Sequence record: PZ445517.1
Reading direction: 5' to 3' (one strand)
DNA length: 64,000 nt
Origin: a phage
Shown here: piece by piece, positions 32,235 to 43,295 of the stretch
Position numbering within the stretch: position 1 is the first letter of the stretch
Layout of the letters: each line of letters opens with the position of its first letter
Notes under the pieces: model-generated
What the model was told of the DNA's origin: nothing
Databases searched by the model: none
Seen by the model: the letters and a program-made list of their open reading frames with translations, nothing else
Position numbers and translations under genes: made by a program

Positions 32235-32708
32235 TTATTTGAATGATTTAACGTACTGAATAGAACCTTTACTATTCACAAAGGCAATTTTACCATTTTT
32301 ATTATACATGGTAGCAGTACGCTGATAGCCATAAGTTTGTTTACCAGATTGATAACCAACTAATGCGAAATTATCTTCACCCATTTTATTCTGTTTAGCA
32401 CGAATACGTTCATGACCATGTGCCATAAGAACCTTAGCATCACCAGTTGCAATGGATCGACGAGTTTTTTCATCTTCAACTGTATTAACAAAGTCGTCAA
32501 ATGAATCAAATTTAGCATGAGATTTATTATACAGTTTTCCATCTACTGCATAATTATATCCTTGTACATCCATCTCAACTTCTGTACCATCATCCAATAC
32601 AGCAGTGATTTTCTGACCTTTTTTAAATTTCAAAAGATCAGTAAAAGATTCAGCAATAATTTGAGAATTAATAGCTGCTTCAGTAATAAATTCTTGATAT
32701 GTTTTCAT
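32235..32708 (-). CDS. ipII: internal head protein with N-terminal capsid-targeting sequence (ipII locus)
   Basis: starts MKTYQEFITEA, the conserved CTS; 157 aa. Confidence 0.65.
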   Translation of the reverse strand: MKTYQEFITEAAINSQIIAESFTDLLKFKKGQKITAVLDDGTEVEMDVQGYNYAVDGKLYNKSHAKFDSFDDFVNTVEDEKTRRSIATGDAKVLMAHGHERIRAKQNKMGEDNFALVGYQSGKQTYGYQRTATMYNKNGKIAFVNSKGSIQYVKSFK

Positions 32709-32749
32709 ATGTTTCCTTTAAATGTAAATAGGTCTGAGTATTAGCTTTA

Positions 32750-33331
32750 TTAAGAATTACCGCGGGCTGCATTAGCAACGGCGTAAGCGTACTGAACATT
32801 AGCGTCTTTAAACGTACCTTTAGAGGTATCTAGTTCTGCCTTAAAGCCGCCTTTAGTCATAACCTCGGCGAATTCTTTACGGAAAGCCATTGCATCAAGG
32901 CTTCTCCATGATGATTTGTGCTTGGCGAATTCAAGACCAGCGTAGTTGACAGCCTTAGCTAATTTATTATCAATAACCCATTTACCAGATTTAGGCACAA
33001 ACACCGGGCCTTTCTGTTTAGAGAATAGTTTTAAATTCCAGCGACGAAGGTCACCGTCAGCTTTAACAAAAGCTGCGTCCAAGTTACTAGCAACAACATC
33101 TTGAATATGACCAAATTTAAGCCCATCAACTTCAATATTTAAATCGGTACGCCAGCGAAGTCCTTCCCAAGCGAAGGCTTTAAAGTCGGAAGCCTTTGTA
33201 GCTAAGTACCGTTCAATAGGAGCTGTTTTAGGGTCAAAGCCGTTTCCCGATCGGTAGGTCCACTCATCTTTATTAATGCCTTTGGCCTTTACTACAGAAG
33301 CTTCGGCAATAAATTCTTGATAGGTTTTCAT
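32750..33331 (-). CDS. ipIII: internal head protein IPIII
   Basis: 193 aa; starts MKTYQEFIAEA; size matches T4 IPIII. Confidence 0.85.
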   Translation of the reverse strand: MKTYQEFIAEASVVKAKGINKDEWTYRSGNGFDPKTAPIERYLATKASDFKAFAWEGLRWRTDLNIEVDGLKFGHIQDVVASNLDAAFVKADGDLRRWNLKLFSKQKGPVFVPKSGKWVIDNKLAKAVNYAGLEFAKHKSSWRSLDAMAFRKEFAEVMTKGGFKAELDTSKGTFKDANVQYAYAVANAARGNS

Positions 33332-33389: not shown

Positions 33390-33424
33390 ATATACTATCA
33401 CAATTCCAAGAGAAAGTAAACGGC
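33390..33424 (-). promoter_or_regulatory. T4-type early promoter upstream of ipIII
   Basis: minus strand GTTTACT - 17 nt - TAgTAT. Confidence 0.5.
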
Positions 33425-36934: not shown

Positions 36935-36970
36935 TTGTATAGTACCATGGAAGAATAGGGATGTAAACAG
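36935..36970 (-). promoter_or_regulatory. T4-type early promoter
   Basis: minus strand GTTTACA - 17 nt - TACTAT. Confidence 0.55.
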
Positions 36971-38339: not shown

Positions 38340-38822
38340 TTATTTTATGTAATATTTATTTAAAAACTTTCTAGCTTGAGTATGGCTAACATTTATAGCG
38401 TTTGCATAATTTTTAATAAAACCTCGTTCATCCATATTAAAATTTTCTAATATTTTTAATCGTCTAATTATCTCATCTTGGCTTAAGGTACTTGCATTAT
38501 TTTTAGAAATTTTTTCTAAAGACTGCACTGAGTGTTTTCGACCATTAAAATTAAAATTTTTAGGTTTTGGAGGAAATCTATCATTTAGTCTCGCATCTTT
38601 TGTATTTTGATTATTAGTTGCGCAATATATGTTATTTAATGAGTATGGTCCTTTATCACCAAAACGACACATACAGTATTCATGACCCTTTCTTCCACGC
38701 TTATCATAATTTCCTGTTGATTTCCACCAATTTAACCACTCATCAAAAGTTAAATTCCATTCAATGTTTCTACGTATAGCAGAATTCCGCTGAGAAATAT
38801 ATTTTGCATAATCTTCTTTCAT
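38340..38822 (-). CDS. hypothetical protein between the two tRNA subclusters, possible DNA-binding or endonuclease-like
   Basis: ATG at 38820-38822; Cys/His-containing N-terminal half (GHEYCMCRFGDKG) and helix-turn-helix-like C-terminus; no clear HNH or GIY-YIG signature. Confidence 0.5.
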   Translation of the reverse strand: MKEDYAKYISQRNSAIRRNIEWNLTFDEWLNWWKSTGNYDKRGRKGHEYCMCRFGDKGPYSLNNIYCATNNQNTKDARLNDRFPPKPKNFNFNGRKHSVQSLEKISKNNASTLSQDEIIRRLKILENFNMDERGFIKNYANAINVSHTQARKFLNKYYIK

Positions 38823-38869
38823 CACAAATTTCTCTACTTATTACATGCACTAAGCTAAATCAGCAAAAC

Positions 38870-38959
38870 TGGCGGAGGCGATAGGATTTGAACCTATGAG
38901 TCGCCGGAGCGACTGCCGGTTTTCAAGACCGGTGCATTAAACCACTCTGCCACGCCTCC
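38870..38959 (-). tRNA. tRNA-Ser (anticodon UGA), class II
   Basis: acceptor GGAGGCG/CGCCTCC, anticodon loop CT-TGA-AA, long variable arm, T-loop TTCAAAT, encoded CCA. Confidence 0.85.
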
Positions 38960-38961
38960 AG

Positions 38962-39035
38962 TCTCCATACAAGGATTTGAACCTTGGACCTCCTGATCCC
39001 AAATCAGGCGCTCTACCAAACTGAGCTACACGGAG
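38962..39035 (-). tRNA. tRNA-Pro (anticodon UGG)
   Basis: D-arm GCTCAGTTTGGTAGAGC, anticodon loop TT-TGG-GA, T-loop TTCAAAT; acceptor pairs with two G-U; CCA not encoded. Confidence 0.8.
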
Positions 39036-39045
39036 TAAATTAAAT

Positions 39046-39119
<74 letters not shown>

Positions 39120-39124
39120 AAATT

Positions 39125-39211
39125 TGGTGCGAGAAGTGGGACTCGAACCCACAAGGAAATCATTCCGCAGCATTTTAAGTGCTGTGCCTTTACCAATTTG
39201 ACCATTCTCGC
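39125..39211 (-). tRNA. tRNA-Leu (anticodon UAA), class II
   Basis: acceptor GCGAGAA/TTCTCGC, anticodon loop CT-TAA-AA, long variable arm, T-loop TTCGAGT, encoded CCA. Confidence 0.85.
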
Positions 39212-39217
39212 TCTATA

Positions 39218-39826
39218 TTATTTATTACGTGAAAAAGATTGTTCTATCAATTCTGGACACTTTCGTTCTATCCATTTTCTAGCTTTTTGTGGGCTTATAC
39301 CTATTATTTTAGCAGCTTTACTAACCCATCCAAATTTAGAATAATCGATTTTAACTAATTCTTCGTAAATTTCATCAGTTAAAATCTTTTCATTAATATT
39401 TACCAGTAAATGATATAATTTATTATCATTAGCAATTTTAATGAATCTTTTATAGTTTCCGCCTTTACTTAAACCTAATGAAGTAATTGCAGATGATATA
39501 GTAGCCGAATTTAATAATGCGTTTAAAATTTCTTCATCACTAACATTATAACGCTTTTTATTATTTTTAATATTTTTACCAGCAAAAGTATCAGTTTGCG
39601 AATGGCAATTTGGACATAATAATCTTAAATTTGATTTAAGATGATTTTTATTATTTCCATCAATATGGTCTAATTGCAGAACAATATGCTTATTTTGCCA
39701 TTTTGAAATTTTACAAATTGCACACTCATATGGAAAAATATTTTCTTTTATTATTTTGTCTTTCAGCTTTCCTGTACTAAAATTTGGATGTTTTCCTTCA
39801 AAAATTTCAGCTAATTTAGTATCCAT
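39218..39826 (-). CDS. HNH homing endonuclease
   Basis: LQLDHIDGNNKNHLKSNLRLLCPNCHSQTD HNH motif plus CAIC zinc pair; track start is TTG, trimmed to ATG (MDTKLAEIF); abuts tRNA-Leu. Confidence 0.8.
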   Translation of the reverse strand: MDTKLAEIFEGKHPNFSTGKLKDKIIKENIFPYECAICKISKWQNKHIVLQLDHIDGNNKNHLKSNLRLLCPNCHSQTDTFAGKNIKNNKKRYNVSDEEILNALLNSATISSAITSLGLSKGGNYKRFIKIANDNKLYHLLVNINEKILTDEIYEELVKIDYSKFGWVSKAAKIIGISPQKARKWIERKCPELIEQSFSRNK

Positions 39827-39936
39827 AATATAATTCCCAATTATTAACAAAGGCTCTCAAACAAGAACCCTTGATGATAGAGGGTATTAATCAGTGCGGT
39901 ATGAGTTAATAATAACAAATAATTCTTAAAGCATAT

Positions 39937-40637: not shown

Positions 40638-40823
40638 TTATTCACCTTTAGAAATTTTATCCATAACAATAGCAATTAAACCAATTAAAAATGCTACTAC
40701 AAGTGAAAACACATTTTCTGCTGTAGTTAATAATCCGCATATAAATCCAACAAACATTGAAAAACTAAAAGCGGAAGCAGAAATTGCAATAGCAACATTT
40801 CGAATTAATTCACAACGTTTCAT
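40638..40823 (-). CDS. small membrane protein (61 aa)
   Basis: ATG verified with GAGGAG SD; two hydrophobic segments. Confidence 0.5.
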   Translation of the reverse strand: MKRCELIRNVAIAISASAFSFSMFVGFICGLLTTAENVFSLVVAFLIGLIAIVMDKISKGE

Positions 40824-40849
40824 TTTATTCTCCTCAGTAGTTGATAGGG

Positions 40850-40884
40850 TAATAATATCACACTACTACCCTACTGTAAACAAT
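40850..40884 (-). promoter_or_regulatory. T4-type early promoter
   Basis: minus strand GTTTACA - 17 nt - TATTAT. Confidence 0.55.
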
Positions 40885-41109
40885 TTATTCAACACCAGCG
40901 GCTTTCAAAAGTTTTTTAAGATTGGCAACACCTTGAGCAGAAAATGTGACCTTGCCACCTTTTTCACTGATAGAACCAACCAATTTAGCAAGTTTATCAT
41001 TAGGAATTTTTTTAAAATCAGCCAATGTTCCATCAAAGGTTTTTGAAACAAAAGGCAGTTCATCTTCATGTCTTTTAGCTTCTGCAATAAATTCTTGATA
41101 TGTTTTCAT
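40885..41109 (-). CDS. ipI: internal head protein IPI-like (CTS-bearing)
   Basis: ATG at 41107-41109 gives MKTYQEFIAEAKRH...; longer track ORF is upstream read-through. Confidence 0.7.
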   Translation of the reverse strand: MKTYQEFIAEAKRHEDELPFVSKTFDGTLADFKKIPNDKLAKLVGSISEKGGKVTFSAQGVANLKKLLKAAGVE

Positions 41110-41143
41110 TTTAGTTTCCATTTGGATGTTTTGTTTTGATAGG

Positions 41144-41180
41144 GTAATAGTATCACTACTAAAACCCCGTGTAAACAACT
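41144..41180 (-). promoter_or_regulatory. T4-type early promoter (internal-protein cassette)
   Basis: minus strand GTTTACA - 17 nt - TACTAT; same leader family as 41510 and 41840. Confidence 0.55.
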
Positions 41181-41194
41181 TTGTGAAAAATTTA

Positions 41195-41482
41195 TTACAA
41201 AAGATTTTTAGCAATAATCTTGAGATGTGCCGCAGAAATGTGTTTAGCTTTAAACAACGCAGTTTCTTCAGCAGGAGAGATAACGATTGTAGCACCATCC
41301 TTTTTAGCAGACCACCCATCGCCTAGGTAAACAGTACCTTTGATTTCTTCGCCATCAACCAGACTAATCATTGGTTTACCTTCTCGTCCTTTATTTGCTT
41401 TAATAACTTCAGAAGTAAGAGTAGCTTCGGTAATAGTAGAAACCGGGGTAGTTGTAGAAGTAAATTCTTTGAAAGTTTTCAT
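41195..41482 (-). CDS. CTS-bearing internal-protein-like gene (95 aa)
   Basis: starts MKTFKEF (CTS variant); ATG verified; ~70 nt upstream identical to the next cassette. Confidence 0.6.
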   Translation of the reverse strand: MKTFKEFTSTTTPVSTITEATLTSEVIKANKGREGKPMISLVDGEEIKGTVYLGDGWSAKKDGATIVISPAEETALFKAKHISAAHLKIIAKNLL

Positions 41483-41509
41483 TTTATTTTCCTAATTAAT
41501 TTTGATGAG

Positions 41510-41545
41510 GTAATAGTATCACTACTAAAACCCTATGTAAACAAC
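41510..41545 (-). promoter_or_regulatory. T4-type early promoter (internal-protein cassette)
   Basis: minus strand GTTTACA - 17 nt - TACTAT. Confidence 0.55.
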
Positions 41546-41554
41546 TTTGTGAAA

Positions 41555-41812
41555 TTATTTTAAATCTTCTAATCGTTTCTTCATCTTAGAACCGTTCTTA
41601 GCGATTTCGCCTGCATCAGAGCATAATGCTAAAAGCGCTTTAACTTTAGTTTGGTCTCCTTTAAAAGATGAAGGATCAACAGCAGCAGCAAGTTCTTTAA
41701 TACGAGAGAAAAGACGCTCAGCTTCAGCTAAAGCCATTCCAAGCTTTACTTCCATACCGCGGGAAGATTCAGTAATAGTAGTTTTTGTAGCAAACTCTTT
41801 GAAAGTTTTCAT
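41555..41812 (-). CDS. CTS-bearing internal-protein-like gene (85 aa)
   Basis: starts MKTFKEF; ATG verified; upstream region duplicates that of 41195-41482. Confidence 0.6.
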   Translation of the reverse strand: MKTFKEFATKTTITESSRGMEVKLGMALAEAERLFSRIKELAAAVDPSSFKGDQTKVKALLALCSDAGEIAKNGSKMKKRLEDLK

Positions 41813-41839
41813 TTTATTTTCCTAATTAATTTTGATGAG

Positions 41840-41875
41840 GTAATAGTATCACTACCTCATCAGTATGTAAACAAC
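41840..41875 (-). promoter_or_regulatory. T4-type early promoter with 10-bp inverted repeat flanking the -10
   Basis: minus strand GTTTACA - 17 nt - TACTAT; TGATGAGGTA...TACCTCATCA inverted repeat spans the -10. Confidence 0.5.
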
Positions 41876-41884
41876 TTTGTGAAA

Positions 41885-42569
<685 letters not shown>

Positions 42570-42570
<1 letters not shown>

Positions 42571-43295
42571 TATAGTACCTTTAGTGTATTTTTAATTTTA
42601 GAAAAAAGTTCTTCAAGAGAACCATCGTTTGTAATTACTAAATCACCATCACGAATTGGCAATCCAGCTTCTGTAATATGTGTATCATTGGATTTTTGAC
42701 CAGGACGAACTACATGAATTACTGTAGCACCCATCGCCCTAGCCGCATCCATTTCATGATCTTGACGAGTATCAGGAACGATATAATAATCATAACCTGA
42801 GTTAAATTTATCAAGATAATCTAAAGCAAATAATTTTACCCAATACATGCGGTCGAAGTTATTAACAATCAAATCCGTACCTAGGGCTTGCATCAGACGA
42901 CGGACTGACCATTGATCTTCAATATTATTTATAACGTCAGCAATCTTGTTAAATGCTACGAAATTAACTGATTCTTTTCCTTCGTCATCAAAAACAAACA
43001 CACCTTTAATTGGGCTTTTACTATTAAGATAGCAAAATGCTTGTTCCATAATAGTAATTACTTCTAATTTAGTCAGATTTAAATTAGTCTCACGATCATA
43101 GTCAATTCCTTCAAACTCTTTACGAGTTAAGCAAGGATAGTCAGTGTTTGCAGCAAATACGCCCCATGCATAAGCCAATGCATCTTTAATAGGACCAGCA
43201 AGTTGATATTTAACTGCAGAATAATTATTCATGATAAAATCTGCAGTAGTATCTTTTCCACTACGCTTTACACCACTTAAAAAGATTAATTTCAT
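42570..43295 (-). CDS. 1: gp1 deoxynucleoside monophosphate kinase
   Basis: 241 aa; Walker A GVKRSGKDT; ATG verified. Confidence 0.95.

Follow-up and report, generated by a model that had tools for sequence, protein, structure and literature searches.

Two polymorphic loci for internal proteins (IPs) were described in T-even phages by Repoila, Tetart, Bouet & Krisch (EMBO J 1994). As that work is relayed in later papers (PMC2839356, PMC12373910, PMC3012670), unrelated IP genes with a common leader lie there beside promoter-bearing repeats. Arbiol et al. (2010; PMC2839356) relate these promoter and stem-loop elements at both variable loci and their likely role in IP shuffling. Similar arrangements are known from the PeSL cassettes of RB49/phi1-type phages (Arbiol et al. 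2010; Comeau et al. 2014), in which a repeat made of a promoter and a stem-loop likewise flanks small accessory genes and likewise serves as a site of homologous recombination that shuffles them; Arbiol et al. (PMC2839356) class the IP elements as analogs, not homologs, of PeSLs. Petrov 2010 makes no mention of IPs.

The proteins encoded at these loci are viewed as diverse defence proteins that have only a capsid-targeting sequence (CTS) in common (Rao & Black 2010; PMC3012670). One of them is IPI of T4, which is packed into the head and leaves it together with the DNA (PMC12373910, PMC9026906); there are about 360 copies per head, and propeptides are of 10-19 residues, according to a review of T4 head assembly (PMC9026906). 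Its mature form, IPI*, enters the cell by injection and inhibits the GmrSD type IV restriction enzyme of E. coli CT596 (PMC12373910, PMC9026906, PMC3012670). A study from the Silas laboratory (Nat Commun 2025; PMC12373910) reported that a different GmrSD is blocked by each of Ip1, Ip2, and Ip3, and in the same study ip4-ip10 gave no reproducible inhibition of the additional GmrSD systems tested.

Here we analyse an IP locus within a window of 64,000 nucleotides of phage DNA (sequence record PZ445517.1), the sequence of which is 100% identical to Escherichia phage T4_ev240 (LR597657.1). Between gene 57B and tRNA.4 there are three small genes, all on the minus strand, which in the direction of transcription are Ip5, ipI, and Ip8; names and order follow the annotation of RB14, CM8, and T4T. 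The most probable reading, to which we give a probability of about 90%, is that the array occupies the polymorphic ipI locus of a Tequatrovirus, with three internal-protein cassettes in the order Ip5-IPI-Ip8. It draws on gene identities, promoters, repeats, cleavage-type motifs, the identity of IPI, and mosaic junctions, all of which are observed in this DNA. The proposal in the initial annotation of a tandem array of CTS internal-protein genes, each behind its own early promoter-leader unit, is supported.

Both flanks of the array are conserved. Upstream lies 57B (41885-42340, minus strand), a member of the Acb1 family of anti-CBASS nucleases (Pfam PF23474 Acb1, E-value 7e-60) that carries the name 57B in RB14, T4T, and T4. 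Downstream is tRNA.4 (40638-40823, minus strand), annotated under that name in T4, RB14, and T4T; it encodes a 61-residue predicted membrane protein lacking a CTS, with a match to phrog_1692 (E-value 6e-35) and sub-threshold noise only in a Pfam search. The gene order 1-57A-57B-[IPs]-tRNA.4-tRNA.3-tRNA.2 agrees with T4, RB14, RB32, and the other genomes compared, so that the array occupies the 57B-to-tRNA.4 variable IP locus. This is the same site as in the described T-even polymorphic IP loci (Repoila et al. 1994; Comeau et al. 2007), as far as those accounts are represented here. Other open reading frames in the region were rejected as genes: one of 144 residues at 40885-41319 extends the Ip8 frame upstream, and those on the plus strand are antisense to supported genes and lack family support. 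The window also contains a second IP locus, at about 32.7-33.3 kb, which includes a gene of the IPIII family. The second variable IP locus of T-even phages adjoins the lysozyme gene e.

The middle gene of the array, ipI (41195-41482, minus strand, starting MKTFKEF at 41482), encodes a protein of 95 residues that is 100% identical to IpI of T4T. The Pfam family PF11634 IPI_T4 covers its residues 20-95 (E-value 7e-54, profile positions 1-76 of 76). It has a leader of 19 residues ending in ITE, with the motif ITE/A, followed by a mature part of 76 residues (IPI*). The start of the mature protein at residue 20 is confirmed by the structure PDB 2JUB, which begins there (chain A, residues 1-76, corresponds to residues 20-95). 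Compared with T4 IPI and IPI*, the protein, leader, and mature part are thus the same, and what had been taken for the middle one of three variable bodies is T4 IPI itself; the outer two belong to the named genes Ip5 and Ip8.

Ip5 (41555-41812, minus strand, starting MKTFKEF at 41812) encodes 85 residues and has a full-length match to the profile phrog_3499 'internal head protein' (E-value 1e-48), with orthologs annotated as Ip5 in RB14, RB32, and CM8. Relatives were detected by tblastn in 497 phage records, with identities within the family of 80-98%. Its leader has 15 residues, MKTFKEFATKTTITE, and cleavage is predicted before S16, which would give a mature protein of 70 residues with a pI of 9.5. 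Ip8 (40885-41109, minus strand, starting MKTYQEF at 41109) encodes 74 residues, with a full-length match to phrog_8765 'internal virion protein' (E-value 2e-26); it has the name Ip8 in CM8, and in VR5 its ortholog is labelled 'similar to Ip8 of RB15'. Its relatives, found by tblastn in 108 phage records that include Tequatrovirus, Dhakavirus, Jiaodavirus, and Klebsiella phages, share 72-96% identity across four phage genera. The CTS of Ip8 is of the canonical 10 residues, exactly MKTYQEFIAE, with cleavage predicted before A11 and a predicted mature protein of 64 residues (pI 9.6).

All three products therefore open with an N-terminus resembling MKTYQEFIAE, and the three reading frames beginning MKT(Y/F)(Q/K)EF that had been noted at the outset are indeed present, on the minus strand. 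A degenerate DNA pattern for the start of the CTS matched five times in the window, where none was expected; three of the matches are in the array and the other two in the second IP locus. The suggested inspection for sites of the gp21 protease after the CTS was also productive. I-x-E closes every leader, with A or S as the next residue, namely ITE/S in Ip5, ITE/A in IPI, and IAE/A in Ip8, and these positions are invariant in homologs (I-T-E-S throughout the Ip5 homologs). For Ip5 and Ip8 cleavage is predicted from such motifs, and the mature ends of both remain predictions since each contains a further I/L-x-E motif (LAE/A at residues 28-31 of Ip5; ISE/K at residues 47-50 of Ip8).

Beyond the leaders the proteins diverge. 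As the initial annotation proposed, the bodies after the CTS are unrelated by sequence, with no detectable pairwise similarity (best BLASTP E-value 0.14), and their predicted or solved folds differ: Ip5 is modelled by AF2 as a helical hairpin (pLDDT 71.8), Ip8 as an alpha/beta core (pLDDT 85-90), and IPI is represented by 2JUB. Pfam searches with Ip5 and Ip8 gave only sub-threshold noise and no match to PF11634 IPI_T4. Profile searches of the PDB by sequence gave no usable match for either (best E-values 0.037 and 0.39, respectively), and fold searches with the predicted structures returned no informative match and no functional clue. A conserved N-terminal leader joined to unrelated bodies, under the same names Ip5 and Ip8, is also what has been described for the T-even polymorphic IP loci, in the accounts available to us.

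Several early promoters accompany these genes. The pattern GTTTACA-N17-TACTAT has six matches in the window, compared with none expected from shuffled sequences, and each gene of the array follows one of them. Unit 3 (41843-41872), which also has a TG element and is equivalent to PE2 in X03016, would drive Ip5; it is identical to the unit upstream of ipI in T4T. Unit 2 (41513-41542) would drive ipI, and unit 1 (41147-41176) would drive Ip8. The three promoters described at first are thus real, but they lie on the minus strand, reading from 41872 to 41843, 41542 to 41513, and 41176 to 41147. A fourth unit, unit 0 (40852-40881, minus strand; GTTTACA-17-TATTAT), is the equivalent of PE1 in X03016 and would drive tRNA.4. 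The cassette array ends with this unit on the downstream side, inside the range originally assigned to the array, and X03016 annotates PE1 as a potential IpI terminator stem-loop.

Two of these units are part of a longer direct repeat of 123 nucleotides, the copies of which are 90% identical and flank the body of Ip5. In copy A (41778-41900, minus strand) the 3' end of 57B is followed by the promoter, the leader, and the first six CTS codons of Ip5, and copy B (41448-41570, minus strand) comprises the 3' end of Ip5 and the corresponding elements of ipI. The repeat begins with the final three codons of whichever gene lies upstream, which read DLK-stop in both 57B and Ip5, and consists of a 33-nucleotide exact block and a 60-nucleotide exact block with eight variable bases between them; the longer block takes in the -10 element and the leader in full, together with the ribosome-binding site, the ATG, and six codons. 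The earlier estimate of about 70 nucleotides of identical upstream sequence is roughly right in light of these blocks, and the 48-nucleotide string quoted in support of it occurs exactly at 41478-41525 and 41808-41855. The claim that leaders are near-identical holds for the Ip5 and ipI units, whereas the Ip8 unit is only 61% identical over the 123 nucleotides and has a different leader. In unit 1 the left half matches the PE1 unit of T4 and the leader resembles the Ip8 leaders of Dhakavirus phages.

The repeated units might reflect nothing beyond the general consensus of T4 early promoters, given that their upstream half (tttttcacaaagttGTTTACA) also accompanies other, unrelated early promoters, such as those at 36968, 22137, and 8937 of the window. 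This is very improbable in view of the exact 60-nucleotide block running from the -10 element through six codons, and of a repeat that takes in the stop and last three codons of the upstream gene. Furthermore, the segment GTGATACTATTACC...ATCAA and a hairpin at the -10 element are typical of the IP locus. When the stability of the hairpin was compared with shuffled sequences, z was below -2 in 21 of 27 IP promoter units and in 2 of 11 other early promoters of the window.

The hairpin of unit 3 (41833-41862, minus strand) has a stem of 13 bp, TGATGAGGTAGTG / TATTACCTCATCA, that spans the -10 element, with a minimum free energy of -17.4 kcal/mol and a z-score of -5.7 relative to dinucleotide shuffles; a potential stem-loop is also marked at the corresponding position of X03016. 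Analysis of 20 promoter units with RNAalifold gave no structure in a common register. The hairpins of individual units sit in slightly different registers, and for this reason stability was assessed for each sequence against its own shuffles. The -10 hairpin may be active, insulating against or terminating transcripts that arrive from upstream or serving as a preferred site of recombination, instead of being a by-product. A repeat with a T4 early promoter and a weak AT-rich stem-loop is also reported for the T-even polymorphic IP loci, as these are cited in later work. The units differ from PeSLs in having T4-type early promoters and stems that are mostly AT-rich and variable in sequence and register, not of the form GGGG...CCCC; the hairpin in this window overlaps the -10 element, whereas the PeSL stem-loop stands beside its promoter. 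There is no sigma-70-like promoter with an adjacent G/C-rich (GGGG...CCCC) terminator stem-loop here, which places the units outside the PeSL class.

A search for the late-promoter motif TATAAATA within the IP array found none, and the proteins that reach the prohead late would accordingly come from read-through or from early-made protein that persists. For late transcripts that would pass through 57A, 57B, and the IP genes, the closest candidate promoter on the upstream side is a copy of TATAAATA inside gene 1 (42926-42933, minus strand), at the same offset, 362 nucleotides into the gene, as PL1 of X03016.

Comparison across phages shows how variable this site is. Roughly 800 Tevenvirinae genomes match this region. 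Among 13 genomes inspected by hand, the number of CTS genes between 57B and tRNA.4 ranges from none to five, in varied combinations. T4 has IPI alone, as the annotation of T4 and T4T confirms and as was stated in the initial annotation. RB32 has the order 57B-Ip5-Ip9-Ip7-tRNA.4 in RefSeq, with the remarks 'replaces ipI' and 'flanked by 43 bp direct repeat'; there are four CTS genes in UFV-AREG1, and VR5 combines Ip8 with Ip9. The order Ip5-IpI-Ip8 is shared with Shigella phage CM8, and among the records examined this exact order occurs only in T4_ev240 and CM8. Record annotations trace the names Ip5 and Ip8 to RB15, T2, T6, and related phages. Multi-gene arrays are thus largely standard in reference T-even genomes, an outcome of the proposed comparison that bears on the novelty of the interpretation and not on its correctness. 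The described T-even loci vary in the number, order, and identity of their genes, and, measured against the accounts of them available here, the present array differs in nothing in kind.

The junctions point to the way in which such variation could arise. The ipI gene of T4 carries the 57B-proximal promoter variant that in this window drives Ip5, as is to be expected, judging from the sequences, if the Ip5 cassette was gained or lost by a crossover in the repeat. The insertion junction of Ip8 lies inside the promoter unit, directly after TATTACCCTATCAA. Another origin would be tandem duplication of one ancestral IP gene in the lineage of this phage, followed by divergence into local paralogs. 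The common CTS, leader, and promoter, together with the 90% identity of the 123-nucleotide repeat between the Ip5 and ipI units, could be read in this way, and segmental duplication does occur at the locus, as seen in CM8. We reject this origin, which has next to no probability: the bodies and predicted folds are dissimilar, near-identity is restricted to the flanks, and orthologs at 95-100% identity are present in other combinations in RB32, VR5, and T4. Instead, we favour exchange of cassettes between phages, with homologous recombination at the repeated promoter-leader-CTS units adding, removing, and rearranging them, and such recombination would account for the zero to five CTS genes of related phages. 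The hairpin across the -10 element may have a role in these recombining units.

Taken with what is known of T4, these features suggest a route for the proteins. Each IP gene would be transcribed from its own strong T4 early promoter, presumably early in infection, and probably again at late times, when transcription from the gene 1 late promoter would read through the array. The N-terminal CTS (MKT[Y/F][Q/K]EF...) would bring all three proteins into the prohead's scaffolding core, where the protease gp21 would then cut after I-x-E, removing predicted leaders of 15, 19, and 10 residues from Ip5, IPI, and Ip8. The small basic products of 64-76 residues would stay in the head and be ejected into the cell with the DNA; for Ip5 and Ip8 packaging is assumed by likeness to IPI, and a literature search for virion proteomics bearing on either found none. 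Once in the cell, IPI* blocks the GmrSD of E. coli CT596, and Ip5 and Ip8 are most probably equivalent injected inhibitors of other host defences.

That the variable bodies are injected anti-defence effectors agrees with the published view of IPs (PMC3012670, PMC12373910), and T4 Ip2 and Ip3, which are specific GmrSD inhibitors, belong to the same class of CTS-bearing injected proteins as the products of the array. Unlike Ip2 and Ip3, Ip5 and Ip8 fall within the ip4-ip10 set that had no reproducible effect on additional GmrSD systems (PMC12373910), a partial test of the proposal that leaves an anti-restriction role for these two putative. One explanation is that Ip5 and Ip8 are packaged without a specific anti-defence target, as generic basic proteins that neutralise the charge of DNA or assist head assembly, and that their diversity is neutral drift in dispensable genes. 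A generic role of this kind has been suggested for T4 IPIII, mutants of which alter the rate of head assembly and the burst size (PMC9026906). The basic pI values of both predicted mature proteins, the GmrSD results for ip4-ip10, and the uninformative fold searches also fit. We nevertheless regard it as rather unlikely. All three T4 IPs, including IPIII, inhibit specific GmrSD enzymes (PMC12373910), and the predicted structure of Ip8 has a compact folded core. Moreover, the bodies of Ip5 and Ip8 are well conserved within their families while the gene sets turn over, a pattern of selected accessory genes and not of drift. The specific alternative is that one or both of Ip5 and Ip8 are injected and inhibit a defence beyond the tested GmrSDs, such as another modification-dependent nuclease or a non-nuclease system; it is a possibility that we hold tentatively.

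The literature and RefSeq annotation already contain this type of locus with its genes and repeated promoter units, as well as the anti-defence hypothesis. As a discovery the array is therefore of little weight, and its practical value is as a pointer. Ip5 and Ip8 are candidate injected proteins for targets beyond the GmrSD systems screened so far, and a phage that carries them beside IPI and Acb1 offers a handy background for knock-out and host-range tests. If they do act on such targets, the target range of CTS-delivered proteins would extend past type IV restriction, and the array, together with the adjoining anti-CBASS gene Acb1, would form a compact counter-defence island.

The DNA between genes 57B and tRNA.4 is the textbook polymorphic ipI locus, carrying three named cassettes of which one is T4 IPI; the arrangement is already known and is not new. 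The initial annotation had described a tandem array of internal-protein (IP) genes, each opening with a capsid-targeting sequence (CTS), and both the observation and its interpretation are correct, with the bodies now identified as Ip5, T4 IPI, and Ip8. The window has 100% identity with Escherichia phage T4_ev240 (LR597657.1), a Tequatrovirus, and every gene of the region lies on the minus strand. In order of transcription these are gene 1 (dNMP kinase, 42570-43295), 57A (42340-42570), 57B (41885-42340), Ip5 (85 aa, 41555-41812; phrog_3499, E 1e-48), ipI (95 aa, 41195-41482; Pfam IPI_T4, E 7e-54), Ip8 (74 aa, 40885-41109; phrog_8765, E 2e-26), and tRNA.4 (61-aa membrane protein, 40638-40823), followed by tRNA.3, tRNA.2, and then an HNH endonuclease gene and the tRNA cluster. 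Immediately 5' of the IP array, 57B falls in Acb1, a family of anti-CBASS nucleases (Pfam PF23474, E 7e-60), yet several records still label it ‘RNA ligase’. The tRNA cluster, also on the minus strand, is interrupted (38340-39850), and only 8 tRNA genes were found in the window. The HNH gene (210 aa, 39218-39850; phrog_14736) stands in place of the tRNA-Gln of T4 and RB14, as it does in Shigella phage CM8, and a 161-aa ORF of unknown function (38340-38825; phrog_16521) stands in place of their tRNA-Thr.

Each of the three ORFs is preceded by the early promoter GTTTACA-N17-TACTAT, which has six matches in the window against none expected from shuffles, and begins with a CTS start, MKTFKEF in Ip5 and ipI and MKTYQEF in Ip8. 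A DNA pattern for this start has five matches, with none expected; the other two are in a second IP locus (32235-33331, minus strand), where an IPIII-family gene (193 aa, 32750-33331; phrog_5341) is followed by a 157-aa CTS protein with the leader MKTYQEFITE (32235-32708; phrog_3155). The latter gene occupies the position of the 100-aa IPII in T4, and the promoter at 33421 is an early-promoter variant unlike those of the ipI locus. The 48-nt string originally quoted as shared has exact matches at two places, within a 123-nt direct repeat whose two copies (41448-41570 and 41778-41900) are 90% identical, made up of exact blocks of 33 nt and 60 nt with 8 variable bases between them. It takes in the final three codons of the preceding gene, which is why 57B and Ip5 both end in DLK-stop, and continues across the promoter, leader, ribosome-binding site, and ATG as far as codon 6 of the next ORF. 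The Ip8 unit is more diverged, with 61% identity and a different leader. A fourth related unit (40881-40852) drives tRNA.4, a gene without a CTS. An in-frame ATG lies four codons 5' of the Ip8 start (41109-41121), as in CM8, giving a candidate METKMKTYQEF, whereas the annotated MKT start places the CTS at the N-terminus.

Beyond their leaders the three proteins have no detectable pairwise similarity (best E 0.14). The middle protein is T4 IPI, with 100% identity to that of T4T, and the Pfam domain covers residues 20-95, the same residues as the solved mature IPI* (PDB 2JUB); its leader is therefore 19 residues, ending I-T-E before A20. A 1985 T4 record (X03016.1, locus L008, 1954-2193) annotates ‘mature IpI (aa 1-80)’, that is, cleavage after residue 15, and since the solved IPI* comprises 76 residues from residue 20 this mat_peptide feature is out of date. 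In Ip8 the leader is the canonical CTS of 10 residues, MKTYQEFIAE, with A as the next residue. The Ip5 leader is 15 residues with an I-T-E end before S, a motif invariant among Ip5 homologs, one of which has a 10-residue leader, MQTYQTFITE. I-x-E, a putative site for the prohead protease gp21, closes the leader in Ip5 (I-T-E/S), IPI (I-T-E/A20), and Ip8 (IAE/A), and the predicted mature proteins are basic (pI 9.0-9.6) and 64-76 residues long. A T4 head-assembly review (PMC9026906) puts IP propeptides at 10-19 residues and describes IPI as a cleaved protein with ~360 copies in each head. The name Ip5 is annotated in RB14, RB32, and CM8, and record notes trace it to RB15, T6, T2, RB51, and RB70; Ip8 is annotated in CM8, and the VR5 record reads ‘similar to Ip8 of Enterobacteria phage RB15’. 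AF2 models, built from shallow alignments, predict a compact alpha/beta domain for Ip8 (core pLDDT 85-90, low-confidence leader) and a two-helix hairpin for Ip5 (pLDDT about 72). Fold and sequence searches with both against solved structures gave no informative match, and the modelled structures support no proposal of function for either.

Relatives identified by tblastn occur in 497 phage records for Ip5, 291 for IPI, and 108 for Ip8, the last including Klebsiella phages of Jiaodavirus and coliphages of Dhakavirus. Between 57B and tRNA.4, CTS genes were counted in 13 genomes: none, as judged by the pattern applied, in PEi20, whose record still annotates an ipI; one in T4T, CAM-21, moha, and Mineola; two in RB14 (Ip5, IpI), VR5 (Ip8, Ip9), and PSD2002; three in T4_ev240, RB32 (Ip5, Ip9, Ip7), and IME08; four in UFV-AREG1; and five in CM8, where Ip5-IpI is duplicated and followed by Ip8. 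The RB32 RefSeq record notes ‘replaces ipI’ and ‘flanked by 43 bp direct repeat’. Among the records examined, the exact order Ip5-IpI-Ip8 is found in T4_ev240 and CM8 only. The CM8 segmental duplication (NC_054939; 1750-4200 of locus L003) reads 57B-Ip5-IpI, truncated 57B, Ip5-IpI-Ip8; at its junction a promoter unit and Ip8-type leader start (CAAAACAAACACTCA) are fused to the middle of 57B, and the C-terminus is altered in one IPI copy of the pair (...AAHFKINDRILL). The IME08 annotation (NC_014260) omits IP genes at this locus: a 69-aa CTS ORF (1513-1722 of locus L007; MKTYNEFLTE then AMESASSV) lies between 57B and an Ip8 homolog, both ORF and homolog being unannotated.

Comparison of promoter units across phages places mosaic junctions within them. 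The 57B-proximal variant (ACTGATGAGG) precedes ipI in T4 and Ip5 in the window, and this is the outcome expected if the Ip5 cassette is gained or lost through a crossover within the identical 60 nt. The Ip8 unit is the T4 PE1 unit as far as TATTACCCTATCAA, and continues with a leader like that of Dhakavirus Ip8 genes. As annotated in X03016, ipI has the early promoter PE2 and ORF2 (tRNA.4) the early promoter PE1; a ‘potential stem-loop’ overlaps each of them, that at PE1 being a ‘potential IpI terminator’, and gene 1 contains the late promoter PL1. At the position equivalent to PL1 the window has TATAAATA (42926-42933); a search of the IP array found none. A hairpin across the -10 exceeds dinucleotide shuffles in stability (z < -2) in 21 of 27 distinct ipI-locus units from 13 phages (median -3.3) and in only 2 of the window's 11 other early promoters, although the units are mutually related and these counts are therefore not independent. 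Such units lie at 40844-41862 and in comparison loci L002-L015; their hairpin arm sequences and register differ, so there is no single consensus structure. The hairpin may act on upstream transcripts, as a terminator or insulator, or may be a recombination site. Arbiol et al. 2010 (PMC2839356) credit Repoila et al. 1994 with PeSL-like sequences at two highly variable T-even IP loci, differing from PeSLs in their T4 early promoters and weaker, AT-rich stem-loops; the same authors count >30 IP variants and propose that these elements may cause the plasticity of IP loci.

According to Rao & Black 2010 (PMC3012670), IPs are highly diverse defence proteins with only the CTS in common. The T4 proteins Ip1, Ip2, and Ip3 inhibit GmrSD enzymes, a different one in each case, and trials of ip4-ip10 against additional GmrSD systems gave no new interaction, an apparent ip8 effect not being reproduced (Silas-lab, Nat Commun 2025, PMC12373910). 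In the IP mechanism, the CTS targets the protein to the prohead core, gp21 removes the leader, the mature protein is ejected with the DNA and inhibits host defence, and cassettes are shuffled through the promoter repeats. This mechanism is known for IPI, and by analogy Ip5 and Ip8 probably act in the same way. Since 57B belongs to the Acb1 family, Acb1, IPI, and two uncharacterised IPs would make up a contiguous counter-defence stretch.
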